From Pseudovirgaria hyperparasitica (taxonomy: Eukaryota), in the NCBI GenBank assembly GCA_010093815.1, contig ML996587.1: 64,000 nt of DNA; one strand, written 5' to 3'. The translations under genes and the position numbers were made by a program. Positions 107 to 63,900 of the stretch are shown in pieces; positions within the stretch are counted from its first letter, which is position 1, and every line of letters begins with the position of its first letter. The notes beneath the pieces are model-generated. The model did no database searches. It was not told the origin of the DNA and saw nothing but the letters and a program-made list of their open reading frames with translations.

Positions 107-3100
107 ATGGTACCTCTATCTACCCTAGCCCCCGAGCGCTTTAAAGGAATAAATATTCTAGCCTTCCTTCGGAAGTACGAGGACATATATATAAACTATA
201 AAGTTCCGCCTAATAAGAAGATAACCTCCCTACCGTTATACTACGAGGACCATCTCTATCCTACTATTAAAGGAATAAGTGGGTTTTAGAAATAGTAGTG
301 GGCCACGCTACGTAAAGAATTATTAAAGGAATTCTCTCTATTTAACTCCGCCCTCAAGGAAGGCACTATCTACTTTGTCCGAAAATACGTGGAAATGGTT
401 AAAGTAGACCCATTCTACTCTCTCTCTATATACTACTCCCGGTATCGTGTTATTACGGAGAAACTTACGGCTAAAGGAAGCCTAAGCTCGTATTCGCGAA
501 TAGAGCTCTTCCTAGAAGGGCTGCCTAATAGTCTTAAGGCTCGGGCTATAGAGAAATATTAACTTACGATGGAAGCATATAGTTATAACTAGGTAATTAT
601 CTATGGCTTCGTATTATAAAAGGCTAGAGCACTTAAGGAACTAGCTCGTATTAATAAGTACTTAGCCGCATAAGAGCTGGCCATAGCCATATACTATAAA
701 TTAAAGATAGGGAGTAAGAAGACTAGCTTAGAAGAGTAGTCATATAAAGAAAGAAGAACTAATGAATTTAGCCACCCCTCTCTAGTCGAAGTACACGTTA
801 CGCTAGAATCGGATAAGTTTAACGAGATGGTAGAGAGATTTAGTAAACTAGACCTCACGTTAATTAAGATAAAGTCCTACTTTACCTCTAATCCCTTATT
901 TCTATCCCTTAAGAAGTACGAACCTAAGCTACTTTTGGCTATTATTAACTAGTAGACGCGAAGGCTAAATCTTTTAACACACCCCTAAGTACGAGGCATA
1001 CCTATAGAACTAACGTAAGTTTATCCATAGAATTATATATAGAATAGAGAATACGTCTCTACCCGAGACTTCTAAGGAGGCGTTATAGCCTAGGATAGGC
1101 CTTAAAGACCGATCGTGTATATTACGTACGGAGGAGATTACCTAATATATAGATACCCGGAGATAGTAGAATATATTAGAGACGAATTACTAAATATTAA
1201 CGGGGTATAAGTATTCTAAGGGCGTTTCGGGGCGAACGGAGAAGAAATCCCATTACTACCCTCCTTAGTAGGGCTATAAGCTACTCTATAAGCTATCCGG
1301 AACTACGTAGTAACGGTTTAAAACGGCCTAAGCTAGTACGGAAGGGGAGTAAAGGTTTCCACGTCTATAGTAAATATTAACGCTTTATAGGGAGTACTAG
1401 TATATAGTATTAGTATAAAACCTACGAAGGGTCCCTACTAGGCCTCGGCGGATAGCAATTCGGAAGAAGAAGTTACGTCGCCCGAGAGTAAGAAAGATAG
1501 ATATATAGAATTCTACGAACGCTTCGACGTAGCTAGTAATAGATATATCCGCGAGGAGATAGCCCTAGAAGAGCCCGCTATACTCGTAATATCTAGAAGG
1601 GGGATCACGAAGAGTACACCTAATTATACTAAGGAAAGAAAGATTACCTATCTCCGCGGAATGCGTAAAGGGTAGTATATAAGGATTATCGAGGAATAGG
1701 AGGACGGTAAAAAGAGTAGTAACTAGGGAACGTCTAAATAAGAGCTAACGGCGCCTAAGAATAAGATAGATAAAGGGGATAGCCTAAATCCTAGTTAAAA
1801 GGCACGTATCCGAGACGTTAAGCTTAATAACTATCTACGCGAGGGATAGTGGCTAAGTATAGAAGCTAGCGAAGCATAGCTAGTGCGCGTTCTAGGGATA
1901 ACTATAAATATTACCATTAGTAAACTATTAAGCCTTAATAGCGACTTACGTCGTGCGGTATTCGAGAAGGGCGCCCCCGACTTTATAGCTAGAGAGGTCC
2001 ATAAGACTTAAGAGGAGAAAGCCGAGAAGAAAGGAAGAAACGACTATACTATAGCTCCCGAGATAAATAAACTTAATATATTAGTACCCCTCTATACTAT
2101 AGGGACGGCCATCACGTAACGAGATATTAATTAGCTTAAGGAAGGGATAGTAAGGCTAGTGGCCGAGTGTCTAAGGTACCCCGTAGAAGTTAGTCCTAAA
2201 AGAGTAACTAGTATAGTACTATTCGATAGTAGCGCGTAGATAAATAGTATTCGACTAGATGCTACGAGGCGTCTCGGGCTAGTAATATCTTCGCTTCTAC
2301 TATATATAAAGAACTCGAGTTTAGTTAGCGCTACTTAGTATAGTACTCTATTCGTGGGAATAGTATAGTAATACCCTATCCGTATAGATCGGATTATTAC
2401 GGCTACTTCGATATTTATATATAGCGAACTTAATTATAACCTTATTCTAGGGGAGCTATATACTAGGTAGGCCTTACTTACGGTATAGAGGTTAGCCTCT
2501 AGATAAGTACTCTTAATAGTCTACTCCGTATATAGATAAGAACGTATAACCTTTAAAACTAGTCCGGATAAGTATATTCTAGTCTTAGAGAAGGAGGGTA
2601 ACTCCGTGGCTAGAGACTAACTATATAGTAGAGTATATCGCTAGAAGCCGGAGTTAAGCCGGATTATTAGTTAAGGGCTACCCTTAACTAATAATCCGCA
2701 CTAAATAGGGTCTAGTAAACCCACTAACGAAGGGGATAGGATATATTTTTATATAGATATAGAAATAAGTTATATAGAGTTGCTTTCCGAGAAAATCCGG
2801 CCTAAAAATATTACTCGGTTATTAAGAAAAGATAACTTAGCCGCCCTAGTTACGGCGGCGAGGTACGCTACCTTCGTATATAAATAAGGCACGATAATAG
2901 AACGGCTTATAGTAGGCTCCACCGGCCTCTAAAGACGGTATTCTTCCGGGGTATTAAAGGGATTTAGTATAGCTACCATATATAAAAGAAAGGGAGTTAA
3001 AGTATACCCCGTGGATGACTCCGAAGCCTACCGAAAGGTCTCTAGGAATCTATTAGGGTATCTAGACTAGCGTGAACGAGTAATCGCACGGTAGGTACTT

Positions 3101-6100
3101 CTTCCGGCCGTCCACCTAGGCCTTAACGCGCTTAGTAGACTAATAGAGCCTTAAAGGGTAACTATCCCGCTAGGAACACGTCTAACGCCTCTACGTATAA
3201 GTTAGCTAAAGATTAGAATAGAGCTACGTCCCGCGGAACTTAAGTTACTATATATAATCTTATTATATCGCGAGGAAGCACTAGCATAGGAATTCTTATA
3301 CCTTAGTAAATTTCATAAAGAGGTGGCACCTCCGTAGGAGATCCGAACGGTAGAATATAAGGTATAGTAGGCCAAGAACTTTAATATTCCTAGAGCCCTT
3401 TATAGGAAGGTACTCATAATCCTAAAAGAGCGTCTTAATAGCGGAAGGCTCGAGCCCTATAGTAGTCCTTATTAAAATGCCTATTTTCTCGTAGAAAAGA
3501 AGAAGGAAGCTAATAAGGAACAAGATTATAGGTTAATTAATTCGGCGATAGAAATCAACCGAGTCACCATTCGTAATGCGGCCACGCCGCCCTTATATAA
3601 AGAATTCTCGGAGTACTTCACGGGGATAGCCGTCTTAACGTTTACCGACTTCTTCTTAGAATATAATTAGATTCTATTAGTAGAGTATTACCGAGACTTA
3701 ACGGGGTTTATAACGCCTCTAGGGTTACTACACGGAATAATATTACCTTAAGGGGCCACTAATTTAGTAGCTTAGTTCGTTAGAATTATATTAACTATTA
3801 TATAAGAATACATCCCGGAGAGGGCTCTGCCATTCCTAGATAACTTAGGTATTAAAGAACCTACGACGAAATATAACTCTAAGGAAGCCCTACCTAGAAT
3901 TTATAGGTATATCCTAGAACATTTAATTAACGTAGATAAGGTTCTCGCGGATATAGAGCGCGCTAGATACGCCCTAAGTAGTAAGAAGACTTAGTAGTAT
4001 ATTAAAGCCGCTAACGTTATAGGATACGTCTACGGCATTAAAGGGAGGCGACCGAGTAATAAAAAGGTTACTACTATTAGGGACTGGAAACCCTGCAAAA
4101 ACACGATAAATATGCGAGCCTTCCTTAGCGTTTATATATATTTCCAGATATAGATCCCCGGGTACACTATTATCACATCACCACTATTTATACTATTAAA
4201 GAATAAATCGGCCTAGTAGTAGATAGCTAAGGAGTAGACCTCGATAGACGCGCTAAAGATAGCTCTAACTACTACTCCCGTACTAATAACATTATAGTAC
4301 GGGATAGGTACGGGAGATATAATTCTAGTAGTAGACTCTAGTAACGTTAGGTAGGGGGCTACGTTAATATAGGAGAACGAGAATTATAAACGTTAGCTAT
4401 CGCGGTATAATAGAGGAATGTAGTTAAAAGCTAAGAGAAACTACGATACCGTGAAACTAGAGTACCGAGCCCTCCTCTACGCGTTATAGAAGTTCCGGTA
4501 ATACCTCTATAGCACGTACTTTATTATAGAAATAGACGCGAATACTCTAGTCGCTTAAATTAACTATACCGTAACTAACTTACTAGGGGCGCTTATTACT
4601 AGGTGGCTCGCGTGGATTTAGCTATAGAACTTTATAGTTAGATATATACCTAGGAAGCGTAACGTAGTCGCCGACGGTATCTTACGGATATATAAAGGAG
4701 AAGAACTACTAGACGTCCCTACCTTTAACCTAGACGAGTTCGTGGACATGGCTCTATATATAGATATACTAGAGACGTCGTTAATTAAGCCTATTAGCGG
4801 GAGAGATTACACGATAGGGATACTCGACTATACTACCATTAAGTCTCCCTCAATAGATAAATATAGCGATAAATAGTAGAGGATTATAAAGTACCTTACT
4901 ATACTTAAGAGGCTAACCGACCTAACCGACCGAGCGTATAAGGCCTTTATAACCGACTACCTAAAGTTCCTTATACGTGACTAAATACTCTAGTAGAGAG
5001 GAGATAGGCATCGCTAATACACACAAGTAATTAAGGATCCGAATACTAGGGCGTGTATAATTACTACCACTCACGACGAGATAGATTATAGAGGTAGTAA
5101 AGGGACCCTTAGAAGAATTAAGGATAAGTATTAGTAGATAGGTATATATAGAGACGTGCGATAGCACGTGAAAACCTATAATAAATATTAACGACGAAGT
5201 AAGCTCCTCGGAGGTCTTAATAAAGGGCTCTACCATATTATAACGCCTGTTCTTTAGTAAAGAATGCACTTAGACGTAACGATACTACTACCTTCTATAG
5301 GGTATAGTAAAGTGGTATCTATATAAGAATAGCTAAGCGGATAGACTAAGGCGGAGGTATATACGGTAGCTACGTCTATAGTCGTCGTAAAGTTTCTCTT
5401 TAAGAACGTGATCTATAGATACGGAATTATTCCTAAAATTACCTATAACGGTGGTAGAGAAAATATAGGTGCTATAGAGGAGCTCCTCCGACTCTATAGA
5501 ATTTATTAGAAGGTTACGTCTACGTATAATCCCTAAGTAAATAGAATTATTAAGAGAAGTTTTATACTACTCGCTAATGCTCTCGCGAAGATAACTAATA
5601 GCGGATTTAAGAACTGGCCCGACCACCTCTATACGGTCGTCTAGGTAGATAGAATAATAATACGTACTAGTATAGGGTATAGTACCGTATACCTCGTGCT
5701 CGGCTATAAACTAATCATGCCTATCGAAGTCGAATTCGAGTCGCTCCGAATACTCCCTTAGGATAAGGTGCGATCGACGTCCGACTTACTTACTCTTTAA
5801 GCTAGATAACTTAAGAGAAGATCCGAGGATCTTAAGGAGACCTATATCTACGCGATACGAACGCGTGAGGAATCGAGAGAGGCATAGAATAACGACTATT
5901 ACCTTCGTTAAGAGTCGTTACTAGTTAATATAATTATCCTCCTATACGACTTATAGTAATAGAAGGATATAGGGCGGAAGCTAAGGTAGTATTAGAGGGG
6001 ACCATATAGAATCTAGTCCGTGTTTAATTATACTTATAAGCTCGCGGAGCTTAATAGAGCTATACTTAGAGGGACGTTTCCTAGCCATAGGTTAAAGAAA

Positions 6101-6330
6101 TATTTCATAAGAAATGCGAGTAATGAGAGTTATAATAAGCCCTCGCGACTACTAATTAGAAGAATTACCGAGGAAAATAAGGAGAGTAGCGATAAGGAAA
6201 ACTATTATAAATAACTTACGGAATACCTTAACGACGCTACATGAACCCGGGTAGAAGTGGTAATTTCTACTCCGTAAGACTTTAATAGAGAGGAATATTT
6301 ACGTTTCCCTAGAATTAATATCTCCTTCTA
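107..6330 (+). pseudogene. RIP-inactivated single-frame gag-pol of A1
   Basis: gag fragment (ORF 107..289, PERFKGINI..FLRKYE), protease (2216) and RT (3833) motifs fall in the same frame; many TAA/TAG stops. Ends approximate; the frame may start left of 107. Confidence 0.85.
2660..2698. repeat. Perfect 39-bp palindrome (18-bp arms, 3-bp spacer) containing the shared 31-bp core, inside gag-pol between protease and RT
   Basis: CGGATTATTAGTTAAGGG-CTA-CCCTTAACTAATAATCCG read directly; counterpart in A2 at 15125-15155. Confidence 0.97.
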
Positions 6331-6661
6331 GGGGATAGAAGTTTTTTTAAGGAGAGAAGGGATACTTATAAAAGTAGTCTTATAACGATAAACTCTATTA
6401 TCGAAAGAGAATAATAAACCCTATTATTACTATAAAATAATAAAACTTATTATTAAAGTAAGTAATACTTAAAAGAAGACATAATGGCGTTTACGCGAAT
6501 TCTACCTACTATATATTAAAGCCGGTCGTGTAATCGAAGCCTACCTATCGAAGGCCTATTTCGTTACTATAGAACGGGCCCTATTAGAAACTAATAAGGA
6601 AGAAAAGAAGAAGGAGGTATAGGAGAAAAAGATACTTATAGGAAGTCTTATAAGGATAAGA

Positions 6662-6762
6662 ATATACCTAGTATCTATTTATTTATAGATTCCGCTATAT
6701 ACCTAGTAGATATATTTATTTATAGATTTCCTATATACCTAGTATATATTTATTTATAGATT
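6662..6762 (+). repeat. Three imperfect ~34-bp tandem units between pol and the extra ORF of family A
   Basis: ATATACCTAGTA..TATTTATTTATAGATT repeated three times; mirrored in A2 at ~10952-11052. Confidence 0.75.
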
Positions 6763-6984
6763 TAACACGTATACGGGCCTACGGCCGTTAGTAAGGATTA
6801 TTTATAAAAATTACTATATACCCGGCATTCGAGGAGACATAAAAAGAGAACTTAAGATAGTATATAACTCTTCCCTCTTATACCTCTCTATACCTCCTTA
6901 ATTAATAAAACCTCCTCCTCTACTTCCGCCTCGCTTAACTATCTCTTCTTAGAACGTAACTTGCTAATAGAACCGATAATAATA

Positions 6985-9966
6985 ATAGCCCCGCCGAAAA
7001 AGAAAACGCCTACCTATAAAGAGTTATAAGATCGTTAAGTACTAATAAGATAGATACGGTTCTAGTTAAGAGTCATGAGTACTAAAGTAGGGCTATTAAC
7101 GGCTATCGTGGTATTAAGGCCATCTACTACTCTATACGGATAGGCTATAGAAGCTACGGAAGTAAATAAGTCTACTATTAACCGAATTATCGCTATCTAG
7201 GACCCGTAAGAGCGATAGGACTACATTCTAGACACGTTTAATAATCTCCTTTATATTACTAGCCTCGTAGAATAGCTCTTAAGTAGTATAGTTAACCTCT
7301 TCTAGGAAGTAGGAGCCGTAATAGGGTATAGTAAGGCAAAGATTAACTCCTCTATTCCGAAAGAAGTCCATGAGATAATTTATCGTGGAAGAGATACTAA
7401 CTCCCGCATCCTAAAAGCTAAAAATATAATTCTATAAAACTAGCGAAAAGACCTCCCTAATAATAACGGCTAGTTACTCTAATCCGCCCTCGGATAGCTC
7501 TAGTAAATATAGAACTTTATAGAAAAGCTAGTAGCGCTCTTATGAGTGCGGACATGGGCGAGAGCGAGGAACTAGTTAAACGTATCCCTATAGTTCTAAA
7601 TCGGCTAGGGATAGAAGAGAAGAGGAATTAAGGTATATCTTTAGAGCTCTAATATCGATACCGCCCTAGCTAGTAATAGTAATAAGGACGGTCTATCTCT
7701 CTAGTAACTCTCGAACTACCCTAGCCGATAAAATAAACTAACGTTCTATAATAAGACGGGACTTATTATCCCCGCTAGTTAATAGTTACGGATAAGTAGA
7801 ATAGTTTATAGGCCCGTCGAATACTACCTATAAATCAAAGAGATAAGTATATCGCCTCCGCCTTAGACCTTACCGTCGCTAAAACTAGCGTAGATAATAT
7901 CTATGGTAAAGTCCCCTCCACGAAGTACACCTTCTAGTTTAGTAGTACGTCGTCTCTTTAAAGCTAGTCGTCCGTTTAAAGTAAGTATTCCTCCTACTAC
8001 TACTAGTAAACGTCCCTTACCGGGCTATACGAGAACCTCTTTAGTGCCCGTTACGGCCACGCCGACAAAACCTACTCGCGGACGTGCCTTATCTACTAGC
8101 CCTTAGTAATTACTAGGGGCGCCTACACGATAATCCCTAGTTATTCTTAGTTCGCACCCTAAGACGATAGTATTAGTCGAGGAAGAGGACGAGCCTAAGA
8201 AGTATTAATACGCGCCTTTAGTAACGAAGACTTTTAAGGTAGCTATATTATTAAAGAAGAATTTCACGAGTATTAAGGGAATGGCCCTACTAGTGCGCTA
8301 GAAAGCATAGATAGGTAACATAGCTATTCCGTATAAAGTCTACTATAAGTATTACTAAGACGTGGCTAGAAAGAATAATATACTCGTTAGCGTGTTCTAC
8401 TTAAACCTAGTAGCGAGACTTAAAATAGTATATAAGTTTAGAGATAACGTAGGGGCCCTTAAAGTTTATAAGGACCGCTATACCTAGTTCGCGAAGTACG
8501 CGTGGCCACCTTATCCGATAGAGGCATTAGATATCTATCGTTACTAGGCCCTAGAGACCCCGAAGCAAGTTATTAATATTAAAACTATCCTTACTAGTAT
8601 TATATTTATAATTTAGAAGGAGGATAGTAGGATAGGTAGATAACTCTTCGACGAGTAGGAACGTACCGGAAGTATTAATATTAAAGGGCTCTTCGAGCTA
8701 CTTAAAAAGACGACCTCTATACTTAATAAGAGTATTCTAGAACTCGCGAGGGATGAATTTAATATATATAAGTACCACCAGCGCATGTTTAATAAGAAAT
8801 CGAACTACGGCTAGCTACGAACTATATACCACTCCTATATCTAATAGTTTATTAGGCAATGCCTACTTTACTAGCTCACCTATATCGCTCTTCGGCCCAA
8901 TCTTAACCACTATCTAATCTCATACCCGTACTATACGAAGTCCTAGGATAGGGGCGATAAGACGGGTTTTAAGTATCTCGATAACGCTATTAATCGAATC
9001 CTCGATCCTAGCGATAGATATAGGTTTAATATAATCTAGGGGAGTATTAGTCTCGATGACGAACGAAGTAACGACTATACTATAATCGTTCTCTACTTCT
9101 ATAAGTTCTTAAATAAATAGTAGTCGAAGGCTAAGCTCCGTGAGGGGGTCAATCGAAATAGTATAATTACGGCTATTAACGATAAGATCTATAATACGGA
9201 CGATAGGAAACGATTTAGTCCCTTCGTTCCGGTCCCCTACTAGTCCCTTAAAATGCGCATCTCTAGCCTACTAATAATACACGGCGCCTAGGGTCCCGTA
9301 AAGGGTGGAAGACATATAATACTTCCATAGTATATCGCGATTAGCCCTAATCATATAATAATAGAAGTATCTAAAATAGGCACATGGGAATAACTCGCAG
9401 TAGCTTATAGGAATTTAACTCCGGGACCCACGTCTCCATCGGGATTTTCTAATAAATATAGCGCGATTCCTTTTACCTTCCTAGCCGTAGTTTAACTCCC
9501 GAGTTTTAACGCCGTTAGTAACGCATTAGTCGGCCGTAAAAGATAGGATAGCTAGAAGGTAAAAGAAGAGATAGCTACGTAGCTTAACGTAAGTCCTTAA
9601 TAACTTAAAGCTAAGGTAGACGCCTGGTTTAAGGAGGGCTCAAGGGTATTCATAGAGACCTTTAAGAAAATAGTAAGGTAGGAAAAGCTAGTCTATAGAG
9701 ATAGGTCGTTCTAGAAGGAATTTAATAAGGCGCGCGCCGCCAAGCGGCTAATTAATTTTAAGAAATTTAAGCCCGACGCGGGCCTAGATAACGTTAAAGA
9801 GAACTTCTACGGATAGAAGAGGCCTAACGAACTATCTAATAAGGAGGAATCTAACCTCTCTAAGATAAGCGACACGATTCTTTAGGAGCTAGCTCGCGAC
9901 CTTAAGTACTAAGATTAGGCGCCTAAAAGCCTACCTAATTATTAGTTAAGGGCTACCCTTCACTAA
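6985..9966 (+). pseudogene. RIP-inactivated extra ORF of family A: N-terminal helical region, Ser/Pro/Thr-rich linker, C-terminal PhyH-like 2OG-Fe(II) dioxygenase domain
   Basis: One frame from (M)APPKKKTP (6985) through ORF 7903..8106 to LISYPYYTK, TGFK[Y<H]LD (8974-8982), I*GSISLDDE (9034-9063), FVPVP, MRISS..HGA*GP (His 9280) and R(9310)..LP*Y. The true stop may be 9912 or 9966. Confidence 0.72.
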
Positions 9967-9969
9967 TAA
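9939..9969. repeat. Shared 31-bp palindrome at the end of the family A extra ORF
   Basis: TTATTAGTTAAGGG-CTA-CCCTTCACTAATAA (one mismatch). Confidence 0.95.
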
Positions 9970-10116
9970 TCTAGGCTAAGGTTTACCCGCGCCGAGAGGT
10001 TTACTAGGAGCGCATTTTATTCGTATTAAGGTCTTTCTTTTAGGCGTTCTTTACACGGTTTCTTATATAGTTACTATACTACTAAGGGTAGTAGTTCTAT
10101 AGGCCGGGGAGGTATA

Positions 10117-10489
10117 TATGGAAGGCCGCTCCTATAGCCCTATATATATATGTCCCTAGCTCGATTACATGGCTTTGTTATATATTTAAGGAGGGCGTTT
10201 TCCTCGGTCATTCTGCTCGGCACGCTTCCCCCATTACTAATATTCGACGATTCGACCTTTCCTTACGTTCATGGGCCTCTATAGGTATTGATTATTAGAC
10301 TTAGCTATTAAAGAATTAATTAAGAGTATTATATAGACCCGTCCTATTATAAAAGAGAACTAATAAGAAGTCGTCCGTTTAAAGAGAACTTATAATACCT
10401 AGAAGAGATACTTATGAGTTCGTCGCGACTACTATACTAAGAATATAGCCATTTATAAAAAGGGACACACGTGGCGATAGCTTACTATA
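10117..10489 (+). repeat. 3' LTR of A1 (373 bp)
   Basis: Reverse complement of 19325-19697, same length; TA...TA ends consistent with RIPped TG...CA; preceded by AGGCCGGGGAGG. Confidence 0.92.
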
Positions 10490-11129
10490 ATAGTCCCATC
10501 GCTCTTACGGGTCCTAGATGGCGATAATTCGGTTAATAGTAGACTTATTTACTTCTATAGCTTCTATAGCCTATCCGTACGGAGTAGTAGATAGCCTTAA
10601 TACTATAATAGCCGTCGATAGCCCTACTTTAGTACTCACGACTCTTAACTAGAACCGTGTCTATCTTATTAGTACTTAACGATCTTATAACTCTTTACGG
10701 GTAGGCGTTTTCTTTTTTGGCGGGGCTATTATTATTATCGGTTCTATCGGCGAGTTACGTTCTAAGGAGAGATAGTTAAGCAAGGCGGAAGTAGAGGAGG
10801 AGGTTTTATTAATTAAGGAGGTATAGAGAGGTATAAGAGGGAAGAGTTATATACTATCTTAAGTTCTCTTTTTATGCCTCCTCGAATGCCGGGTATATAG
10901 TAATTTTTATAAATGATCCTTACTAATGGCTATAGGCCCGTATACGTGTCGAATCTATGAATAAATATATACTAGGTATATAGAAAATCTATGAATAAAT
11001 ATGTCTACCGGGTATATGGCGGAATCTATAAATGAATAGATACTAGGTATATTCTTATCCTTATAAGACTTCCTATAAGTATCTTTTTCTCCTATACCTC
11101 CTTCTTCTTTTCTTCCTTATTAGTTTCTA

Positions 11130-11139
11130 NNNNNNNNNN
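11130..11139. other. Assembly gap (10 N) flanked by a ~95-bp direct duplication
   Basis: 11035-11129 is repeated at 11140-11234; the segment is single-copy in A1. Confidence 0.95.
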
Positions 11140-19324: not shown

Positions 19325-19697
19325 TATAGTAAGCTATCGCTACGTGTGTCCCTTTTTATAAATGGCTGTGTTCTTAGTATAGTAGTCGCGACGAACTCAT
19401 AAGTATCTCTCCTAGGTATTATAAGTTCTCTTTAAACGCACGACTTCTTATTAGTTCTCTTTTACGATAGGGCGGGTCTATATAATACTCTTAATTAATT
19501 CTTTAATAGCTAAGCCTAATAATTAATACCCATAGAGGCCCATGAACGTAAGGAAAGATCGAATTATCGAATATTAGTGATAGGGGAAGCGTGCCGAGTA
19601 GAATGACCGAGGAAAACGCCCTCCTTAAATATACAATGAAGCCATGTGATCGAGCTAGGGATACATATATATAGGGCTGTAGGAGCGGCCTTCCATA
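19325..19697 (-). repeat. 5' LTR of A2 (373 bp)
   Basis: Matches 10117-10489; followed on the minus strand by ATTTTAGAG (possible RIPped TGG primer-binding site). Confidence 0.92.
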
Positions 19698-25860: not shown

Positions 25861-25869
25861 AAATATATA

Positions 25870-42469: not shown

Positions 42470-42473
<4 letters not shown>

Positions 42474-42527
<54 letters not shown>

Positions 42528-50760: not shown

Positions 50761-50789
50761 TAGTACACGAGACCTAACCACGTCCTTAG

Positions 50790-53700: not shown

Positions 53701-54530
53701 AACTATAAGTAGGATAACTAGGTAAGGTTAGTCTATGTCGCGGAATTCGCGTATAATAATAGCCGATATACGTTAACCCACGTGAGTCTATTCGAAGTAA
53801 ACTTCGGTTAGAACCATAATATATAGTTCTTAGAGACTTAGTTTAAAGTAGAATAACCTAACGTTAAAGTAATAGAAATTACTATAGAACTATTCTAAAC
53901 GTAAAGAAGCGTTATAAAGTTACTATAAGATACTATAAATTATAGTAAATCGTATTATAATAAGGGTAGAAAACCTATAATCTTTAATGTTAGGGATAAA
54001 GTTTTACTAAATAGTAAGAATATTCGTAGTATTAGGCTAAAGAAGAAGCTTAACTATATAATAATAGGTCTATATAAGATTACTCGTGTAATTAATAACC
54101 AGGCGTACGAGTTATAACTCTCTCCTACGTTAAAGATATATAATATATTCTATATTACGCTTCTCGAGCCATTTCATGCCTTATTATTACCGGATCGTTC
54201 CGAATAGATACTATATAAAGTAGTTACGTAAGAAGGTATAGATATCTACGAAGTTAAGTAGATACTTAGCTAGTAACGTGCCGAAGATAGTACGTAGCTA
54301 TATAAGATTCGTTAGAAAGGATATAATTCTAATAAAGATACTTAGGAACCTATAATAAACATTAGTAAAGTAGCGATATTAGTATATAAGTAGTAATTAG
54401 TAAAGGAAGCCGCGGAATCGCAGAGAATTATACTAAAGTACAGCGATTTAACGTTTTTTAGTATAGTTTAGCGCTAAGGACGGCCGCCTAAAAGGAAGAA
54501 GGTGAAAGAGATATAGATCTTTAAAACATT
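50790..54530 (+). pseudogene. pol: pol of C1: protease, RT, RNase H, integrase, chromodomain
   Basis: ALIDTS (~50896), KKKDGSL..VDY, RRGDKWKTAFRTRY, VVYLNDILIYS (~51910), KLSKCEF, VETNA, YNTHD*ELL, MDFIIDLP, YEVK*IL...IR*KGY...DT*EP (~54247-54350). Ends approximate. Confidence 0.92.
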
Positions 54531-54872
54531 CTAAGGAATTAAGGAACTTCCTTAGAAAGTTCGAACTTAGAACTTTAAAAAATTTAACTAAAAAAGAGAC
54601 TTAGAAAAATGATTTACTAAGAGAAATAGACATTAAAAATCGGTGCCGATTGGTATAGATCGGTATAGATTACTAAAGAGATTAAAGAAGTTATTATTAA
54701 AGAAAGATGAAATTAAGAAAGCTAGAAGAAAATATAAAGATCTATATAGATCTATGTAAACTCACACTAATCTATCTAGAAGAAGCAAGATCGCTTTAAA
54801 ATTAAAACCGAAAAACCAAAAACGCTAGATAAAAGAGATATATTAGTACCGATTGGTATAGATCTAAACTAT

Positions 54873-55767
54873 TTATATCGGAGTAGGAGTAGAAGTACTA
54901 ATTACCGCGATAGTTACATCTAATTCCTTTTACTAGTTCTTATTTACCATAGTATAGAGCTTTATAATATAAGTCTCTAGCCTTTTATTCCGATACTAGA
55001 AATTCTATATAGCGCGCCTTATAGCTATAAACTCCTCTATAGAAACATATAGAGCGGCGGGACCTAGGACGGAGAGGGACGGACCGGCGCGGGCACGCTA
55101 AGAATTATATAAATCAGCGAAAAGATTTAACGATTGGTATAGAACCATATACCTTTAGTATAGAAACCTCTAGATTAGAGCCATCTTCCCTAAATTTATA
55201 GCTCTTTAGCATGCGCGAGGAAGGAACCTTAGCCTTTTTACTAGAACCTTTTCTAGGAATTCTAATATCGCCGGTATATAGAAAGAAGTCTAAAGTAGTA
55301 GAGATTTTAGCACTATTATAGAGATTAATATATATTAGTAAGAATCTATAACGATTTAAGAAAAACGATATTACCTAGTAATCGCGGTAATAATAGCTAT
55401 AGTAGATTCCAATAAATCCTTATAGATCTTATTAGAATTATACTCCTAGGCGTAACCCTTACCTTAGATATATAGCTTATAGAAAGCCTTCTCTAAGGCG
55501 TTGCGATTAGTAGTACTACGCTTCTTATTAGTAGGGGTTACTAGAGGCCTAGTAGTAATCTATACTAATATAAGTAAATCTACGTAAAGTTCTTCGAACT
55601 TACTTAAATATCTATAAGTAATAACGCTTCTTAGTCATGTAAGTACCGTATATTATAGATTTAGTACTACTATAAGTAATATACGACGGAAAGCGACAAC
55701 CATAATAATATATAGCTAGATTATTAGAGCCCGGCCTAGGTCGGGGTAGATTAATAGCTTTCGACAT
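54873..55767 (-). pseudogene. Antisense four-exon cargo gene of family C (~241 aa) with Zn2Cys6-like N-terminal cysteine pattern
   Basis: Exons 55767-55612, 55559-55375, 55312-55153, 55097-54873; introns of 52, 62 and 55 bp with GT...AG ends (first GT preserved in C3 at 61946); introns 2 and 3 have CTRAY-like branch sites; splicing keeps one frame with only RIP-type TAA/TAG stops. Confidence 0.7.
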
Positions 55768-58700
55768 ATTAGTAATATATATAAGATAGAGATTATTTAA
55801 AGGCGCCTATTTCCGTACTAATTACTTTAGAGCGTCGAGATTTCGGGAAACTATATTATAATTATTACTAATTTATGCGGATTATTACGAATTATACTAT
55901 TACTAGCTAAGGACGGTATAAAAATTAGTAAAATGCGTAAATCGCACTAAATTATAGTAAATCTATATAAATCTATGTCTATAAGGATCGGGTAATATAC
56001 CTAATAATCTAAAAAACTCTATAAAGAGTTAAGAAGTTTTTTAAAGAAAGGAATATTTCTAAGAAAAGATTTTAATATAGGTAGCATCTAGGCTTACCTA
56101 ATTAGATCACGTGATACGCTAGGCCTAATTAGGCAATCTTACCTATGTAAGAAGTTAGAATAGATAAAATCTAGTTTATTAGGAAAACGCTTATATAAAT
56201 CTTAGATTAGCGAATATTAGTAAATATCTAAGACGAAGTATAGAGAACGACTAAGGTCTTACGAGACTTAGAATAGGGATATAGAGATAGGTAACGACCT
56301 AGGTCGCTAAGGGTAGCTTCCTAGAGGGAAGGGATAATTATTAGAACTTAGCCTTAGGTAGAACCCGACCTATATATACCTTAGCTAATAGAGTTAGGAG
56401 GTGACGTAAAGGGCGGTAAATAGTCACGTGCTAGATAGATCGGCGTCCCTTTATATATATACTCTCGGATTCCTACTAAAAGGGTTCGGTAGTAATTCGT
56501 TCTATGATAGAATACACCCTATTGTTCTATCTAACTACACTACTATCCAATAACCCTATTCTTACATTATTCTCTCTTCTAGCTTTATATAAGATTTTAA
56601 AGTTGAATATTAATATCTACTTAGCCTAATATACTTATTAGTAATTAAGGACCTTAGTTAATATAAAGTAATATAGATTTATATAATCTAATAATAATTT
56701 AATCTAATATATAGAACCTTCTAAATAATATTACTATTACTTAAAACTCTTAATAATTATAAGTAGTTTCTAGTTATATATATTATAATATATCTCTATA
56801 TCTACTATTTTATAGAAAAATAAGACGACTAGATACTATTATATCTTATTTTTTATATCTTTATACGGTTAACTAATAATTCTAGTAATTATAAATTCTA
56901 ATATATTAGTTTCGACCTAAATATACTTCTTAGAATTAAAATACCTAAGAATTAGTATAGTTATAAAGTAATTCTTTAATAATTAGAATATATCTTATAC
57001 TTCTAGTATTAACTATATCTTAACTAACTTAGCTTTATACTATACTTATCTATCTATAGAGATTTTACTACTATTCTCTATAAGTTTATTAAGTAGTACT
57101 ATAATTTATAAGAGGTCTATAATAAATTTATAATAATAGTTTATAAAATCTATAAATATTCTAATTTAATATATAGTAGTAGATTGTAGCTATTCTATAA
57201 TAGTCTTTATACGCTCTAGCTCTATTTTTTAACCGCTATATATTATAATAAAGCTAAGAAACCTAACTTCTTATTAGTAGAACTTATATTTAAATAACTT
57301 TATATAGAGCTTATACTATCTTAGATAATTTAGTACTAATTTTATATATTCTTTATAATTCTATATACTATTAGAGTAAATTAGTATATTATTAAGATAG
57401 ACTATATAGATTATATTAAGTAATTCTATAAGTATAGTATTAATATATTCTTAAAATACTTCTAGTATATTTATTAGTCTAAACAGTATAATAGTATACT
57501 TAAAATAACTATATCTAGTCTAAAATATAGTTTTCTACTTATCTCTATAATAAATTTAAAGCTAGTAATATATATCTTATAAATCTAGCTTTATAAAGTA
57601 CTTTACCTTTATTAATTAGTCTAAAGATTTACTAACTAGTAGTAATAGATAATAATTCTTCTTAGTTACTATATTTAGTATCTAATAGTTAATATATAGA
57701 TAGAAACTTCTATCTTTCTTCTTTATAAAGAGAATAGATATACTAGCTAATAATATACTATAATATATCTAGTCTCTTCTAAGGTATTCTTTAATATATT
57801 TAGAAAGAACTTTAAGTTCTAGTCTTAAAAGTAGATAAAGTAGACTATAAGAAATATCTACTCCCTCTTTAAGCTTAATCTTTAGCTTATATAGTCTATA
57901 ATTAGAGAGAAGTAATATATCTTCTACTAAAAATATATCTATATACTATAAATATATATTAGATAGCGTGTCTTTATTCTAATTATTACTATTATTCTTA
58001 TCTTTATTAAGAATTAATAGAGATATAAGATAGATTAGTAATAATTAAGTCTATATAGTAAGGTTCTATACCTTCTTACTAATAACTATAACTTACTAGT
58101 ATAATTTACTATAATATTAGTAGAATATTAAGATCTTCTTCTAAACATTAAGAATTAGATTTTAATATTTAAGCTAAGGTATTTCTAGAATTATATTCTA
58201 TTAGCTAATATTAGCTATAATAAACTTATTAGATATCTACTATTTTATTATCTTTAAGTTATAAACTTTATAATTTATTATAGCTTTATCTAAAGTTCTA
58301 ACTTTATATCTATTAACTATAATAGTTTAGCTAACTTTACTAAGATTATATAATAATCTATACTTCTTTATAAGAATTAATAAAATATAGTTATCTTCTA
58401 TACTAGTATCTATAAGAGCCTATATAGTTTTATTACTATTTACTATAGATAATAATATCTTTAGTAATATTAGATCTTTACTTACTAGAAGGTACTATAG
58501 CTCCTTCTAAGTATATATAATTTAGCTAAGAATATAGTTAGATCTTATATACTAGTCTATTCTTTTTTTAGATTCTTATAGTTAGGTAAAATATATTCTA
58601 TTTCTCTATACTTATAGTAATAAAGTATACTATAATCCTACTATCTTATAATAGATATTATATTTAAGTCTATATCTTATTCCTTTCTATATTAAGAAGT

Positions 58701-60132
58701 ACCGCCTTAATTATTTTAGTATTCTCTTAATATATTTCTACTCTAATTTATACTCTTCTAGTACTAATTATAGTAAGGTTACTCTTAATTAAATATATTT
58801 AATTAACCTTATTTCTAACCTATATAGAGTTTATTAGTTTTATCTAGAGAGCTATATTCCTTAAGAATATAGTAGTATTTATTAGCTTTCTTCTCTAATT
58901 TATATAGATAATTAAAACTTAATAATACTATTTCTAGTCTTTCGTGGATTAATAGGAGTAGTACTTTATAAAACTAGAATATATAAATATTTTTCTATAA
59001 TATAGGGATATTATTCTATAGGTTTTAAAGGTATTATAGTAGTTAAGTAAATATCTAGTTCGGTTATTATACTACGCTTCTTAACTTAGATAGTACCTTT
59101 CTTTTATATTCTCTATCTATTCTAAGGCTATTTAGTATAAATATAGCTAAATATTTCTAGGTTATTATAGATAGTAGCTATATTTCCTTCTATCTATTCT
59201 ATTAATTATAGAATTATAAGTCTAGGTATTATTCTCTAAATAAAATATATTATACTTTAGTAGAAAAGAGTAGAGAGTTATTAAGGAAGTACTTTTTATA
59301 GTCTCTCTTCTAGTCTTTCTACTCCTTTTAGTTCTTCTCTATAAATATAATTAGATCTTTAGATTTTAGTATATCTAGAGAAGGAGTAGAGTAAATTAGT
59401 AATAAAGCGGCCGGGAGTATAGTAGATTATTATAACTCTAGTAGTAGATAAACTAATTCTACCTAAATTAGTATAGGAAGTTATCCGTCTACTATTATTC
59501 GGTATAGTTCTTTAAGAGACTCTTTAAGTTCTTATCTCTTTATAAGAAGTTTTATATATTTAGTCTATTCTTTAAGAATCTAAATCTCTTAGACTTAATT
59601 AGTAATATACTTCTATAGTTTAGTAATAGTTTATTATAACACCTTATATAGCTCCACTACAACTTATTATCTAACTTCATATTATTAGAAGTTACTTAGT
59701 ATATCTACTATTTCTTTATTAGAAAGCTCTGTGATTTAGTCTAATATCTCTACTTCTTAGTTAGAAATAGCTAGATTTAATACTAATTATAGAGGATCCC
59801 TATTATTTAATATAGTATTACTTATCTCTATAGTAGATTATATTAACCTTCTTAGTTCTAGTTAAACTATCTTAACTATAGTACTATATAGAGAGTAATT
59901 TAAATATAAGAATAGGGTTATTAGATAGTAGTATAGTTAGATAGAATAATAGAGTATATTCTATTATAGAATAAATTACTACTAAACTCTTTTAGTAGAA
60001 ATCTAAGAGTATATATATAAAGAGACGCCGATCTATCTAGTATATAACCATTTACTACCCTTTATACTACCTTCTAACTATATTAGCTAAGGTATATATA
60101 GATCGGGTTATATATAAGACTAAGTCCTAACA

Positions 60133-60989
60133 TTAGCTAGCTAACGTTATATTAGAAGAGTTAAGTACCGCTATTCTATCTCCTCTATCTATTAATATTA
60201 ATATACTAGCGATTATAATCTAATCGCCTTATAAATTAATATATAATAAGAGTTTAAGCGAATATATAAAAGTCTAATATTATATACTATTTAGGGCTAG
60301 AGAGGAAGCGTCTACCGGCGTAGTAGTTATTAAGGTAATAGTAGAAGTCTATATATAACTAGATATACTAAGTCCGCCTTCTTCTTATATAGTTCTATTA
60401 CTAGATAATATTACTAGTTTTAATATTATAGAAGAGGAGTTTATAGATACGAACCTATGAATGTTAGTATAATATTAGCTTAATAGTATATATTATAGTA
60501 TAAGGTAAGTTATATTTAGACTATAGTTAGATATATATACTAGTATACTAACGGATATATAGTATCTCTACTATAAATAGAATAGATAAGATATAGCTAG
60601 TAATATCTTACTATCTAGAAGAGATAGTTACTATAGAATTTAGAAGATAGACTCGGTATCTATAGTATTAGTATATTAGATAGTTAAACCTTTATACAAT
60701 ACTATTTACTTATATCTATATTTATCTAAGCTCTAATTTAATAGCCTTCTATAATATACTATATACTTAGTTAGTAAGCTACTAGACTTATATAATAGTA
60801 GTATACTACTCTACTTTATATACTACTTAAGCTACTATTACTTTAGTCTATGTTAATCTTAGCTTTCTTTAGTTATCTCTATATTATAAAAGAAAACTTC
60901 TATAAATCTTTTCTCTACTTATCTTAGTTTTTAAATCTAAATCTTACCTTCTATACTTTATTCTATATTAATTATAACTATATATAAAT
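60133..60989. other. Unclassified RIPped segment between C2 and C3
   Basis: Same RIP signature (so probably repetitive elsewhere in the genome) but no match seen in this window and no motif I can assign. Confidence 0.4.
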
Positions 60990-63900
60990 TGTAAGAATAG
61001 GGTTATTAGATAGTAGTATAGTTAGATAGAATAATAGAGTATATTCTTTTATAGAACGAATTACTACTAAACCCTTTTAGTAGAAATCTAAGAGTATATA
61101 TATAAAAAGACGCCGATCTATCTAGTATATAACTATTTACCGCCCTTTACGCCACCTTCTAACTATATTAGCTAAGGTATATATAGATTAGGTTATACCT
61201 AAGACTAAGTTCTAATAATTATCCCCTTCCTTTAGGAAGCTACCCTTAGTAACCTAGATTATTATCTATCTCTATATTCTAATTCTAAGTCTTATAAGAC
61301 CTTAGTCGTTCTCTATACTTCGTCTTAGATATTTACTAATATTTATTAATCTAAGATTTATATAAGCGTTTTCCTAATAAACTAGATTTTATCTATCTTA
61401 AATTCTTATATAGGTAAGATTACCTAATTAGGCCTAGCGTATCATATAATATAATTAGATAAGTCTAGATACTATCTATATTAAAATCTTTTCTTAGAAA
61501 TATTCCTTTCTTTAAAAAACTTCTTAACTCTTTATAGAGTTTTTTAGATTATTAGATATATTACCCGATTCTTATAGATATAGATTTATATAGATTTACT
61601 ATAATTTACTATAATTTATATAGCTTACTAACTTTTATAGTATACTTAGCTAATAATAATAATAATCTATAAGAATCTATATCAATTAGTAGTAATTATA
61701 ATATAGTTTCCCGAAATCTTAATACTCTAAAGTAATTAGTATAGAAATAGGCGCCTTTAAATAATCCCTATCTTATATACGTTACTAATATATTAAAAGC
61801 TATTAATCTACTCTAACCTAGGCCGGGCTCTAATAATCTAGCTATATATTATTATAGTTATCACTTTCCATCGTATATTACTTACGGTAGTACTAAATCT
61901 ATAATATACAGTACTTATATAACTAAGAAGCGTTATTACTTATAGGTATTTAAGTAAGTTCGAAGAACTTTATATAGATTTACTTATATTAGTATAGATT
62001 ACTACTAGGCCTCTAGTAACCTCTACTAATAAGAAGTATAGTACTACTAATTATAACGCCTTAGAGAAGACTTTCTATAAGCTATATATCTAAGGTAAAG
62101 ATTATATCTTAGAGTACGATTCTAATATAATCTATAAGAATTTATTAGAATCTACTATAGCTATTATTACCGTAATTATTAGGTAATATTATTTTTCTTA
62201 AATTATTATAGATTCTTACTAATATATATTAATCTCTATAATAGTACTAAAATCTCTACTACTTTAGACTTCTTTCTATATACTAGTAATATTAAAATTT
62301 CTAGAAAAGGTTCTAGTAAAAAGGCTAAGGTTCCTTTCTTATATATACTAAAAGACTGTAAATTTAGAGAAGATAGCTCTAATCTAGAAGTTTCTATACT
62401 AAAGGTATATAGTTCTATACTAATTATTAAATCTTTTTACTAATTTATATAATTCTTAGCGTACCCACGCTAGTCTATCTCTCTCTATTTTAGGTTCTAC
62501 CGCTCTATAGATTTCTATAGAGGAGTTTATAGCTATAAGGCGCGCTATATAGAATTTATAGCGTTAGAATAAAAGGCTAGAGACTTATATTATAAAGCTC
62601 TATACTATACTAAATAAGAACTAGCGGAAGGAATTAGATATAACTATTACAGTAATTAGTACTTCTACTTCTACTCCGACTTAATTAGTTTAGATCTATA
62701 CTAATTAGTACTAATATATTTCTTTTATCTAGTGTTTTTAGTTTTCGGTTTTAATTTTAAAGTAATCTTACTTCTTCTAGATAGATTAGTATAAATTTAT
62801 ATAGATCTATATAGATCTTTATATTTTCTTTTAGCTTTCTTAATTTTATCTTTCTTTAATAATAACTTCTTTAATCTCTTTAGTAATCTATACCAATCTA
62901 TACTAATTAGTACCGATTTTTAATGTCTATTTCTCTTAGTAAATTATTTTTCTAAGTCTCTTTTTTAGTTAAATTTTTTAAAGTTCTAACTTTAAACTTT
63001 CTAAGGAAGTTCTAAGTTTAAACTTTCTAAGGGAGTTCTAAGTTCGAACTTTCTAAGGAAGTTCCTTAATTCCTTAGAATAAATGTTTTAAAGATCTATA
63101 TCTCTTTTACCTTCTTTCTTTTAGACGGCCGTTCTTAGCGCTAAACTATACTAAAAAACATTAAATCGCCGTACTTTAGTATAATTCTCTATAATTCTAT
63201 AGCTTCCTTTACTAATCGCTACTTATATACTAATATTACTACTTTACTAATATTTATTATAGGTTTCTAAGTATCTTTATTAGGATTATATCATCTAAGC
63301 CCGAACGGGCGCCATGGGACTCCTATACTACATCCATAAGAGAGGCGTTCCCGACACCTCCCTATAGTATAAGGCATACGGCCGGAGAGATATAATACGC
63401 TACTATCTAGCTATATGCCCTAATCTCCATATATAATAGTAATAGCTTATCTACGTTATGAAGACTTTAGATATCGTATAATAGCTTAATAAGTACCCTA
63501 AGGACGTCTCCCGATAGATACTTATATATCTACTACTCCTCTAGTACTAGTGGACCTGGAAATATATACCGGAAGAGACCCGGTATATGCCGGTAGTAAC
63601 CCGATATATACCGGAAGAACCCTAGGAGAACCCCGATTATTAGTTAAGGGCAGCCCTTAACTAATAACCTCCGCACCTACACGTGCTACCTAAGGGTAAA
63701 ATAACGGTAATATAGGCTATAGGCTAATAGGCGTACCCTATAGCTATATACCTAAGATAAAATAGAGGTTTAACGAGATATAGTTATAGACATAAGGAAG
63801 TTTTTCCCTATAGGGTTTCTTCTTATATAGTGGCTTAGACTAGAGGAGGCATAGGCCTATAGAGTACTACTCTACCTAGTTATATAATATTATTATTATT

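Follow-up and report, generated by a model that had tools for sequence, protein, structure and literature searches.

A 31-base palindrome common to a LINE and a Gypsy-type retroelement in a fungal genome

Results

Degraded retroelements in the window

The DNA analyzed here, referred to as the window, is a stretch of 64,000 nucleotides from contig ML996587.1 of Pseudovirgaria hyperparasitica. Two of its retroelement families are of concern. A Ty3/Gypsy element, Gypsy A, is present as two copies, the second an inverted duplicate of the first, with a 2.9-kb unclassified RIPped segment between them; its gag (74-526), protease (2174-2467) and RT-IN (3173-6115) regions all lie in frame 2. The other family is a LINE, which we take to be Tad-like from its domain order, ORF1 features and tail, and partly from general knowledge. 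LINE copy b (24160-29450, plus strand) has endonuclease and RT regions, ends in a (TTA)n tail and is flanked by a target-site duplication (24135-24159 and 29451-29475, 88% alike). Homologues of its ORF2 reach an identity of at most 32%. A SINE at 16680-17614 matches the LINE at 29370-29458 alone; what the two share is ~110 nt at the 3' end and the (TTA)n tail. The window holds just one stop-to-stop ORF of at least 150 aa and no intact element, and every "ORF" is thus a read-through reconstruction; a preliminary description of this DNA went too far in speaking of full-length LINEs.

Five independent sites of one palindrome

A scan of the window with up to 3 mismatches allowed revealed a 31-base hairpin-forming palindrome, TTATTAGTTAAGGG-NNN-CCCTTAACTAATAA, with nine matches that have at most one arm mismatch (starting at 2664, 9939, 15125, 23127, 24401, 29190, 42748, 47550 and 63637). 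The arms are perfect in seven of these nine, the copies at 9939 and 42748 having one mismatch each, and 100 dinucleotide-preserving shuffles produced no match. Besides the nine, a degenerate copy occurs at 18793 (left arm perfect, right end altered) and a half copy at 32741; the palindrome was thereby recovered at all 11 positions where it had been reported. It was also confirmed to be absent from the SINE and from 33000-42700 and 47600-63600, the stretches previously given to Gypsy B, C and D, and the ~30 kb of other TEs in the window contain no palindrome. Single arms outside palindromes were not found in the window, and neither was an element combining palindrome ends with a transposase. 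The arms are 14-nt perfect inverted repeats, or 11 nt if the outer TTA/TAA represents target plus duplication. TA stands at nt 2-3 and nt 29-30 in every canonical copy, and stop codons are carried in six of six frames. Read on the sense strand, the spacer is CAG or TAG in the LINE and CTA in Gypsy A, just as described before.

The 11 places reduce to only five independent sites, two in the LINE (L5, at 24401 and 47550; L3, at 23127, 29190, 32741, 42748 and 63637) and three in or beside Gypsy A (G1, at 2664 and 15125; G2, at 9939; G3, at 18793). Similarity between sites ends 0-2 bp beyond the 31-mer, a LINE site and a Gypsy site share a stretch of 33-35 bp at most, and flank alignments score no better than chance, in agreement with the earlier claim that the flanks are unrelated between the classes. 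The occurrence of the same 31-mer at five sites with unrelated flanks requires copying, as opposed to convergence.

In LINE copy b, L5 (24401-24431, plus strand, spacer CAG) is located 2 bp upstream of the ORF1 ATG (24434), and at L3 (29190-29220, plus strand, spacer CAG) the ORF2 frame stops at a TAG formed by nt 5-7 of the palindrome. L3 is also present on the plus strand in the 5'-truncated copy a (23127-23157, spacer TAG) and the 3' fragment e (63637-63667, spacer CAG), and on the minus strand in the heavily RIPped copy d (42748-42778, one arm mismatch), which has L5 as well (47550-47580, minus strand). The half copy in LINE copy c (32741-32754, plus strand) is a deletion derivative of the L3 site that has lost its left arm and spacer together with the 16 nt preceding them. 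These positions are homologous between LINE copies that are 72-93% alike, and the sites are retained in all copies that span them (L3 in 5/5, one partly deleted; L5 in 2/2). No private insertions were found in the window, each LINE copy carrying the palindrome solely at the two family-wide sites. Among LINE copies that differ by 7.6% transversions, the arms show a transversion in 0 of 56 columns versus 101 of 692 flank columns (Fisher p = 3.5e-4). In the LINE the palindrome has stayed the same as the sequence around it changed, which suggests that the palindrome probably also does something for the LINE. A 16-nt stretch of ORF1 (24638-24653, plus strand) is the perfect complement of 29230-29245 (plus strand), 10 nt past L3, and the pair is retained in copy d in RIP-modified form. 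A search for a TIR-like extension around the LINE coding block yielded just one 11-nt common motif.

G1 (2664-2694, plus strand, in Gypsy A copy 1; 15125-15155, minus strand, in copy 2) falls in the unconserved linker between protease and RT, with its TAA in frame. It corresponds to about query residues 189-199, upstream of all alignments among the best 150 homologues; since none of the best 150 of 1740 aligns before query residue 250, insertion versus native sequence is not readable from protein alignment. G2 (9939-9969, plus strand, one arm mismatch) lies in the 2.9-kb segment between the two copies and is the center of a longer imperfect palindrome. G3 (18793-18823, minus strand), the degenerate copy, is in the leader of Gypsy A copy 2, where the gag-homologous frame has its first Met ~80 nt further downstream, and has no TA on the altered side. 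The preliminary description had placed the palindrome mostly at ORF boundaries. Sites at or near frame boundaries are indeed what we find, with the qualification that these ORFs are only read-through reconstructions; a proposed "cargo ORF" has 73 stops, and its protein has no Pfam family and no homologue at E ≤0.001 among 7999 scored candidates, making that label an overstatement.

The flanks of G1, G2 and G3 are self-complementary, with an energy at or below the observed value at 0.5%, 0% and 0.3% of 1456 random insertion points, respectively, and z = -3.7, -4.6 and -3.0 relative to shuffled flanks. The same random-insertion and shuffled-flank tests detected no extra symmetry in the flanks of L3. 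At G1 and in LINE copy b, GA|TC adjoins the palindrome, making the restored targets locally symmetric. Removal of 27 nt restores TTAA at all canonical sites. It leaves an in-frame TAA at L3 and G2 and the same frame on both sides at G1 and L5, and the frame relations thus fit a 27-nt gain in four of four testable cases, each having a chance of ~1 in 3 and that of G2 depending on an unsupported ORF.

The arms are native in a second sample

Runs X3 and X4 come from another sample and study, and their contigs were compared with the window; most of Gypsy A has no cover in these runs, which was not counted as absence. The LINE in X3/X4 is far less RIPped than in the window (T>C at 345 places versus C>T at 21). 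Its contigs reach the palindrome, one from run X4 bridging the L3 site of copy a gap-free, and among the X3/X4 matches listed there is no 27-31-nt joint or deletion that would mark an empty site at any palindrome site. Over the palindrome junction the X3/X4 LINE consensus reads GAAGACCCCGAGAAAACTCCGATTATTAGT, that is, TTATTAGT. Within the window, the RIP-sensitive CAG spacer is kept in 3 of 9 copies, and C or G is found at the proposed de-RIP positions in 0 of 18 arms, all of which have T. The palindrome arms are native, not RIP-derived. The ancestor with TGATAA (GATA-type) ends that had been proposed by undoing RIP is contradicted by these sequences. Because the X3/X4 LINE has this same reading, the in-frame TAA in Gypsy A pol is native to the insert, and there is no CAA to infer at position 2672, where one had been held necessary for an open pol frame. 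With arms nearly free of RIP-prone dinucleotides, the motif survives RIP intact.

Searches outside the window

Exact scans for the 31-mer returned nothing in metagenome contigs and nothing in viral contigs. A degenerate core pattern that allowed the de-RIPped letters suggested earlier hit nine metagenome and two prokaryote-genome loci, all of which were rejected as chance look-alikes (TTA/TAA spacers throughout, unrelated flanks, two of them from a Candidatus Nomurabacteria MAG). The LINE had no match in a plasmid collection, which is ill-suited to such a query, and the curated RNA families of Rfam 15 gave no match in the window at gathering score. Literature searches turned up nothing related to the arm sequences, judged by title among the matches listed, and nothing relevant on palindromes in fungal LINEs or very short MITEs among the matches listed.

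Discussion

Origin of the palindrome

The 31-mer is identical at five unrelated sites, and the reading frames around it fit a gain of 27 nt. Of the three ideas that the preliminary description put forward, a mobile or recombination unit and a shared RNA hairpin are now the two leading readings; the third was a protein operator. The first of these in our estimation, held at somewhat below even odds, is a REP/MITE-like insertion: the palindrome would have gone into TTAA in master copies and been kept thereafter. With the same measure of reserve, it may be regarded as a self-contained copy-pasted module that is foreign to the ancestral sequence of both elements. A 25-nt core, consisting of 11-nt inverted ends around CAG, would insert into a TTAA target, and duplication of the central TA would bring the net gain to 27 nt and produce the 31-mer. 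Lineage-founding copies would have been entered twice in the Tad-like LINE and at least three times in the Ty3/Gypsy element, before the amplification and RIP of both families. The target TTAA itself contains the stop codon TAA and could thereby give rise to placement at frame boundaries. With stops in all six frames, insertions within essential coding sequence would kill an active element, and only those at frame ends or in linkers would persist in lineages still copying themselves, which would explain why amplified families have boundary and linker insertions alone. A symmetric, transposase-type choice of target would yield the self-complementary flanks of the Gypsy sites. The TA duplication, the DNA-level mechanism of insertion and the order of events are inferences.

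Several observations sit awkwardly with such a module. No empty site was seen among the X3/X4 matches listed, the window has no transposase-bearing element with these ends, G3 is without TA on one side, the L3 flanks lack extra symmetry, and the frame at G2 depends on an unsupported ORF. Occurrence solely at family-wide sites, with no private insertions, is odd for a promiscuous DNA element, and the absence of arm transversions in the LINE argues against a neutral passenger, which should have decayed. To our knowledge, 25-31 bp is also far below the size of any known MITE. Several specific mechanisms were considered and rejected. A piggyBac-type TTAA duplication would leave TTAA at both ends, which is not the case; a PIF/Harbinger 3-nt duplication would call for direct repeats, which TTA and TAA do not form; and a Helitron 3' end is contradicted by the symmetry and by a hairpin that runs straight into CTAA. 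A spliceosomal mini-intron has no workable GT..AG pair with in-frame removal, and for translational bypass a matching landing codon would shift the frame.

Conservation in the LINE makes it probable, as far as sequence comparison goes, that the palindrome serves some LINE role, the likeliest being an RNA hairpin or pairing element. Somewhat less probable than the TTAA insertion, with which it is compatible as to origin, is the possibility that a selected cis-acting RNA element accounts for the palindrome as such. Modeled as RNA, it would form a 13-14-bp hairpin, and any two copies would pair into a ~30-bp duplex. The ORF1-side and ORF2-stop copies could then cyclize the LINE RNA or pair two RNAs, with the built-in stops punctuating translation, and in Gypsy A the palindrome might do what dimer-linkage palindromes do in retroviruses. 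In the same tentative sense, the RT may have switched templates between RNAs that were paired or co-packaged and so carried the palindrome from family to family, which would account for an occurrence that is restricted to retroelements and to family-wide sites. In line with an RNA element are the conserved LINE arms, the retention of both LINE sites in every spanning copy, the exact positions 2 bp upstream of the ATG and over the stop, and dead copies devoid of private insertions. The predicted energies (-15.8 kcal/mol for the hairpin and -44.2 kcal/mol for the two-copy duplex, versus 2 x -15.8), flanks that lengthen the hairpin at G1-G3, and the second, 16-nt perfect pair between ORF1 and the 3' UTR point in the same direction. 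On the other hand, the sense-strand loop differs between the families (CAG in the LINE, CUG in Gypsy A), the single gag-pol frame receives an in-frame TAA at G1, and scanning should be impeded by a stable hairpin 2 nt upstream of an AUG. Since the two long-range pairs cross one another, they cannot both form as nested helices, and because RIP makes compensating changes in the two arms of any inverted repeat, the pairing in copy d is not evidence of covariation. A double template switch adding an identical 27-31 nt five times is also unlikely. A bolder version, which we consider rather improbable, has the palindrome as an RNA "handle" shared by different retroelement classes. Pairing of the ORF1-side copy with the ORF2-stop copy would loop the coding block and bring terminating ribosomes close to the start codon, and carrier RNAs could pair with one another, so that LINE and Gypsy RNAs could be co-packaged and recombine and the handle could jump between families.

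The remaining readings are weaker. It is unlikely that both families independently recruited the palindrome as a DNA operator bound by a dimeric protein of the host or of a TE (a transcription factor, silencing protein or insulator protein). The perfect 14-3-14 dyad is the classic form of a dimer-binding site, and the LINE conserves the sequence; but it is implausible that 28 identical bases were recruited convergently at five sites unless they were copied, and a place inside pol or over a stop codon does not look like that of a promoter. The GATA-type form is refuted by the X3/X4 LINE, and no candidate binding protein was found, the "cargo" frame having neither homologue nor domain. Even less credence is given to the core site of a Crypton/DIRS-like tyrosine recombinase or a serine recombinase, with bracketed segments such as the LINE ORF1-ORF2 block as exchangeable cassettes. 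Inverted arms do flank a short asymmetric spacer, and both LINE palindromes share one orientation and bracket the coding block; however, the spacer is 3 nt, compared with 6-8 nt in known tyrosine-recombinase cores. No recombinase domain was found in the scanned stretches of the LINE or of 1-10116, and no chimeric junctions were found: beyond the palindromes, the UTRs of different LINE copies are homologous. Least plausible by far is that Gypsy A captured a piece of the LINE, or that the palindrome is a library or assembly artefact; no support was found for either. The preliminary description had named more extended homology, or absence from independent reads, as what would betray these; LINE-Gypsy similarity stops 0-2 bp outside the 31-mer, and the palindrome occupies homologous positions in diverged LINE copies and is contained in second-sample contigs.

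Comparison with known systems

Palindromic MITEs of the Tc1/mariner type, such as human MADE1, plant Stowaway and Fusarium mimp, are roughly 80-250 bp long and consist of inverted ends with little between. The palindrome resembles them in having almost no interior, in folding as a hairpin over its whole length, in a terminal TA that fits TA duplication and in dispersed copies with unrelated flanks. It differs in its size of 25-31 bp, in ends of 11-14 nt that are shorter than known transposase binding sites, in its occurrence in two retroelement families only and at family-wide sites only, and in that neither an autonomous partner (in the window) nor an empty site (among the X3/X4 matches listed) was found. 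Bacterial REPs and BIMEs are palindromes of 20-40 bp just past stop codons that are mobilized by RAYT transposases (Y1 HUH). They too are identical palindromes in unrelated contexts past stop codons, but they are prokaryotic, whereas the palindrome is carried by retroelements in the nuclear DNA of a RIP-competent fungus. The mobile hairpins of fungal mitochondria (GC clusters, double-hairpin elements and the "byp" elements of Magnusiomyces) are mitochondrial and GC-rich; like the palindrome, they are hairpin inserts of tens of nt that spread in a genome, at gene boundaries or in frame within genes, although the palindrome shows no sign of translational bypass.

On the RNA side, the dimer-linkage palindromes of retroviruses and Ty1 (DIS, PAL) and the cyclization sequences of RNA viruses are element-specific. 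Self-complementary retroelement RNA with a predicted intermolecular duplex is a common trait, and G3 occupies the leader, the usual place of such signals; yet the palindrome is common to a LINE and an LTR element, the only leader copy is degenerate and the pairing is a prediction. The RT-recognized 3' stem-loops of "stringent" LINEs likewise place a hairpin in the 3' part, but the palindrome is absent from the SINE-common 3' end. A LINE 3' RT-recognition element was rejected, as the partner SINE lacks the palindrome, which lies ~150 nt upstream of the SINE-common part.

Implications

The palindrome marks both families well in heavily degraded, AT-rich fungal DNA. If it is a mobile unit of 25-31 bp, it falls well under the size at which MITEs are usually recognized and would be missed by TE annotation pipelines, and such inserts could ride within retroelements and be amplified by them. 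Should the RNA handle prove true, it would be the first cis-element with one and the same sequence in LINEs and LTR retroelements, and bacterial REPs would have a counterpart in the eukaryotic nucleus. If the LINE needs the palindrome, as its conservation hints, it would offer a compact handle on the coupling of coding-block ends or RNA pairing in a fungal LINE, and also on sequence exchange between LINE and LTR elements.

Copies of the palindrome

The pattern TTATTAGTTAAGGG-NNN-CCCTTAACTAATAA (two 14-nt arms around a 3-nt spacer) was matched nine times in the window at three or fewer mismatches, as compared to no match in 100 dinucleotide-preserving shuffles. Seven of the nine matches have perfect arms, and a single arm mismatch is present in each of the other two (9939 and 42748). 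Adding one degenerate copy (18793) and one half copy (32741) gives all 11 places listed in the preliminary description, which self-comparison and alignments reduce to five independent sites. A single-arm search of the window, allowing two mismatches, yielded nothing convincing beyond these copies. The stretches 33000-42700 and 47600-63600 and the SINE at 16680-17614 are free of the palindrome, in keeping with the earlier statement that it was not seen in Gypsy B-D or the SINE.

The exact 31-mer was not found in metagenome and viral contig collections, from which this organism is absent, and matches to the degenerate pattern in metagenome and prokaryote contigs proved to be unrelated bacterial palindromes. 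Loci L001-L011, from metagenome and Candidatus Nomurabacteria contigs, carry 23-nt palindromes of the CAGTCAAGGG-TTA-CCCTTGACTG type; these occur at several loci of CPR-bacterium contigs, are unrelated to the 31-mer and are possibly an operator or repeat of those bacteria's own. A title-level literature search found no description of the 31-bp motif, and Rfam gave no match anywhere in the window.

Sites in a RIP-degraded setting

The window is AT-rich (GC 0.20-0.41), with TpA/ApT of 1.55-1.78 throughout and a single stop-to-stop ORF of at least 150 aa. Gypsy A (RNase H and integrase domains) is present as a large inverted pair of copies (1-7223 and 10117-19697) differing almost solely by RIP transitions (285 of 286 differences in 5540 aligned positions), mostly in CpA and CpG context. 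Given this degradation, all "ORFs" here are read-through reconstructions.

In the LINE, which has endonuclease and RT domains and a (TTA)n tail, the palindromes do bracket the coding region as first described: only 2 bp separate the 5' site L5 (24401, and 47550 on the minus strand) from the ORF1 ATG downstream, and the ORF2 stop falls within the 3' site L3 (23127, 29190 and 63637, and 42748 on the minus strand). Alignment of the LINE copies places ∼240-270 nt of homologous 5' UTR upstream of L5, and about 230 nt of 3' UTR follow L3. The half copy of L3 at 32741 has lost its left arm, its spacer and 16 nt upstream. LINE copy b is flanked by a target-site duplication (24135-24159 and 29451-29475). 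Just 5' of the 3' palindrome is a 21-nt tandem repeat of ∼3 units (29100-29161, 63562-63622 and 42804-42853), whose translation is a 7-aa repeat at the C-terminus of ORF2 and which includes a 14-bp palindrome, CCGGTATATACCGG; one related unit lies at 24457-24481, 25 nt past the ORF1 ATG.

For Gypsy A, frames were assigned by tblastn with long gag-pol relatives. Frame 2 of copy 1 holds gag (74-526), protease (2174-2467) and RT to integrase (3173-6115), so that site G1 (2664, identical to the inverted 15125) falls between protease and RT, as had been noted. The palindrome there corresponds to query residues ∼189-199, in a linker without conservation in relatives: none of the best 150 of 1740 matches aligns before query residue 250. 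The degenerate site G3 (18793) lies in the leader, ∼80 nt 5' of where the gag-homologous frame has its first Met, which agrees with its reported position near the gag start. Copy 2 has its LTRs at 10117-10491 and 19323-19697. Copy 1 breaks off precisely where the internal region meets the 3' LTR (7223), and in place of an LTR comes a 2.9-kb unclassified segment within which site G2 (9939) lies. The putative "cargo ORF" (7075-9942) contains 73 stop codons, and its frame gave no Pfam match and no homologue in a large protein collection.

Flanks, independent contigs and the SINE

The longest stretch common to LINE and Gypsy sites was 33-35 bp, consisting of the palindrome plus GA and sometimes TC. 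Flank comparisons, both anchored and local, were within chance (best local score of 11 in 40 comparisons, against a random-pair 95th percentile of 10). The flanks are thus unrelated between the classes, as originally claimed, and since homology does not reach well beyond the palindrome, capture of a LINE fragment by Gypsy A is rejected.

Four sequencing runs matched LINE copy b: X1 and X2, from one sample that is possibly the window's source, and X3 and X4, which belong to a different study and sample under the same species label. To positions 9700-29699 of the window were aligned 53,509 contigs from X1 and 19,029 from X2; because their differences from it are nearly all transitions, the LINE and Gypsy families are very abundant in the X1/X2 genome as many RIP variants. 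The end of the "cargo" also appears to be repeated there, because the bin 9700-10366, which overlaps it, is as deep as Gypsy A. Contigs of up to 4383 nt from X3 and X4 cover LINE sequence, and one of them (X4 record 27), aligned gap-free over 22974-23190, crosses L3 (23127-23157) and extends 153 letters before it and 33 beyond it. This bridging contig from the second sample, and the palindrome's homologous placement among LINE copies with 72-93% similarity, rule out a library or assembly artefact.

If the palindrome were a LINE 3' element recognized by RT, a SINE using the same 3' end might be expected to carry it. The last ∼110 nt of the SINE match LINE 29370-29458, the only part common to the two, and the SINE has no palindrome, which rules this reading out. 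The SINE (935 bp) lies inside Gypsy A copy 2, where its ATTAGGTGAT target is duplicated, and runs from a tRNA-like head to a (TTA)n tail; ARAGORN called no tRNA in the whole window. Its empty site is found in Gypsy A copy 1 at ∼1140-1155, an X1 contig joins 16671 to 17621 across it, and its depth is high in X3/X4.

The arms are native

The preliminary description had de-RIPped the arms to an ancestor with TGATAA (GATA-type) ends. Compared to the window, the X3/X4 LINE has T>C at 345 (X3) and 343 (X4) places and C>T at only 21 and 16, and is thus far less RIPped, yet its loose-end consensus behind 23083 is GAAGACCCCGAGAAAACTCCGATTATTAGT, with the arm starting TTATTAGT. In the window, all 18 arms have T or A where de-RIPping had been proposed, even though the RIP-sensitive CAG spacer is kept in three of nine copies. 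The arms contain no CpA, TpG or CpG, and RIP therefore barely touches them; the TAG and CTA spacers are ordinary RIP products of CAG and CTG. The arms being native rather than RIP products, the TGATAA-ended ancestor is refuted. The CAA held to be required for an open pol frame falls with it, as the in-frame TAA at G1 is part of the insert.

Proposed insertion anatomy and flank symmetry

Each of the four canonical sites, once 27 nt are removed, has its flanks joined by TTAA, and the 27 nt may be read as a 25-nt core plus one TA. The TAA restored at L3 and G2 is in frame with the incoming sequence; here the insert would have entered the stop codon itself, and the TAG of the palindrome now closes the frame two codons on. 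No shift of frame is seen between the two sides at L5 and G1. A 27-nt gain therefore fits four of four frame relations, each with a chance of about one in three, the G2 case being weak because of the stops and missing homologues of its frame. For L5, the ORF1 frame upstream in LINE copy b (24161-24400) has one stop in 80 codons and no Met, as compared to seven and three stops in the other frames. This low count is only suggestive; it may mean that the 5' UTR was formerly coding, or may be due to chance. All six frames of the 31-mer contain at least one stop codon, a property of ∼8% of same-composition palindromes that is notable, not extreme.

Folding with the palindrome stem forced and 25-nt flanks was compared with 1456 random insertion points and with shuffled flanks. 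Energies were -35.4 kcal/mol at G1 (0.5% of random points at or below; z -3.7 against shuffled flanks), -38.4 at G2 (0%; z -4.6) and -36.6 at G3 (0.3%; z -3.0), as compared to -32.5 at L5 (2%; z -1.9) and -28.7 to -25.0 at L3 (9-30%; z ∼ -0.4). At G1-G3, therefore, the palindrome forms the center of a longer, site-specific imperfect palindrome, which could reflect symmetric target choice, pre-existing hairpins as targets, or selection for a longer stem.

Conservation and origin of the palindrome

Among all LINE copies spanning the sites, the half copy excluded, none of 56 arm columns has a transversion and one has a transition, as compared to 101 and 169 of 692 flank columns (Fisher p = 3.5e-4 for transversions). 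Since 271 transversions distinguish copy b from copy d over 3579 aligned positions, the two lineages parted long before RIP; a neutral passenger palindrome should have decayed in the LINE. The predicted RNA fold of the palindrome is -15.8 kcal/mol and that of two-copy pairing is -44.2 kcal/mol. A second, perfectly complementary 16-nt pair joins 24638-24653 in ORF1 to 29230-29245 in the 3' UTR, 10 nt past L3, and by our estimate is not expected by chance within 5.6 kb (below 0.01). It is kept in copy d at equal offsets with RIP-type changes (21 of 25 matches), but as RIP acts on the two arms of an inverted repeat in the same way, its retention is no evidence of covariation.

The palindrome has certainly spread by copying. 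It would have arisen as a DNA-level insert at TTAA, with its placement at boundaries due to selection, a reading we adopt tentatively and at somewhat less than an even chance. Such an insert is favored by the TTAA/27-nt anatomy, by the frame relations and by the symmetry of the targets; its tiny size and the LINE conservation count against it, as does the finding of no empty site among the contig joints and gaps listed, no partner element in the window and no private insertions in its ∼60 kb of dead TEs. Selection for an RNA hairpin or pairing element would account for the lack of private insertions, the conservation and the exact placement, but must still explain five identical acquisitions of 27-31 nt, and is the somewhat less likely primary explanation. 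The remaining weight is shared by a DNA operator, a site for a recombinase, and possibilities outside those considered. Insertion at TTAA and an RNA role are compatible, with insertion first and retention after. The main evidence that the palindrome is needed by the LINE, or else kept homogeneous by some process, is the conservation of the arms.
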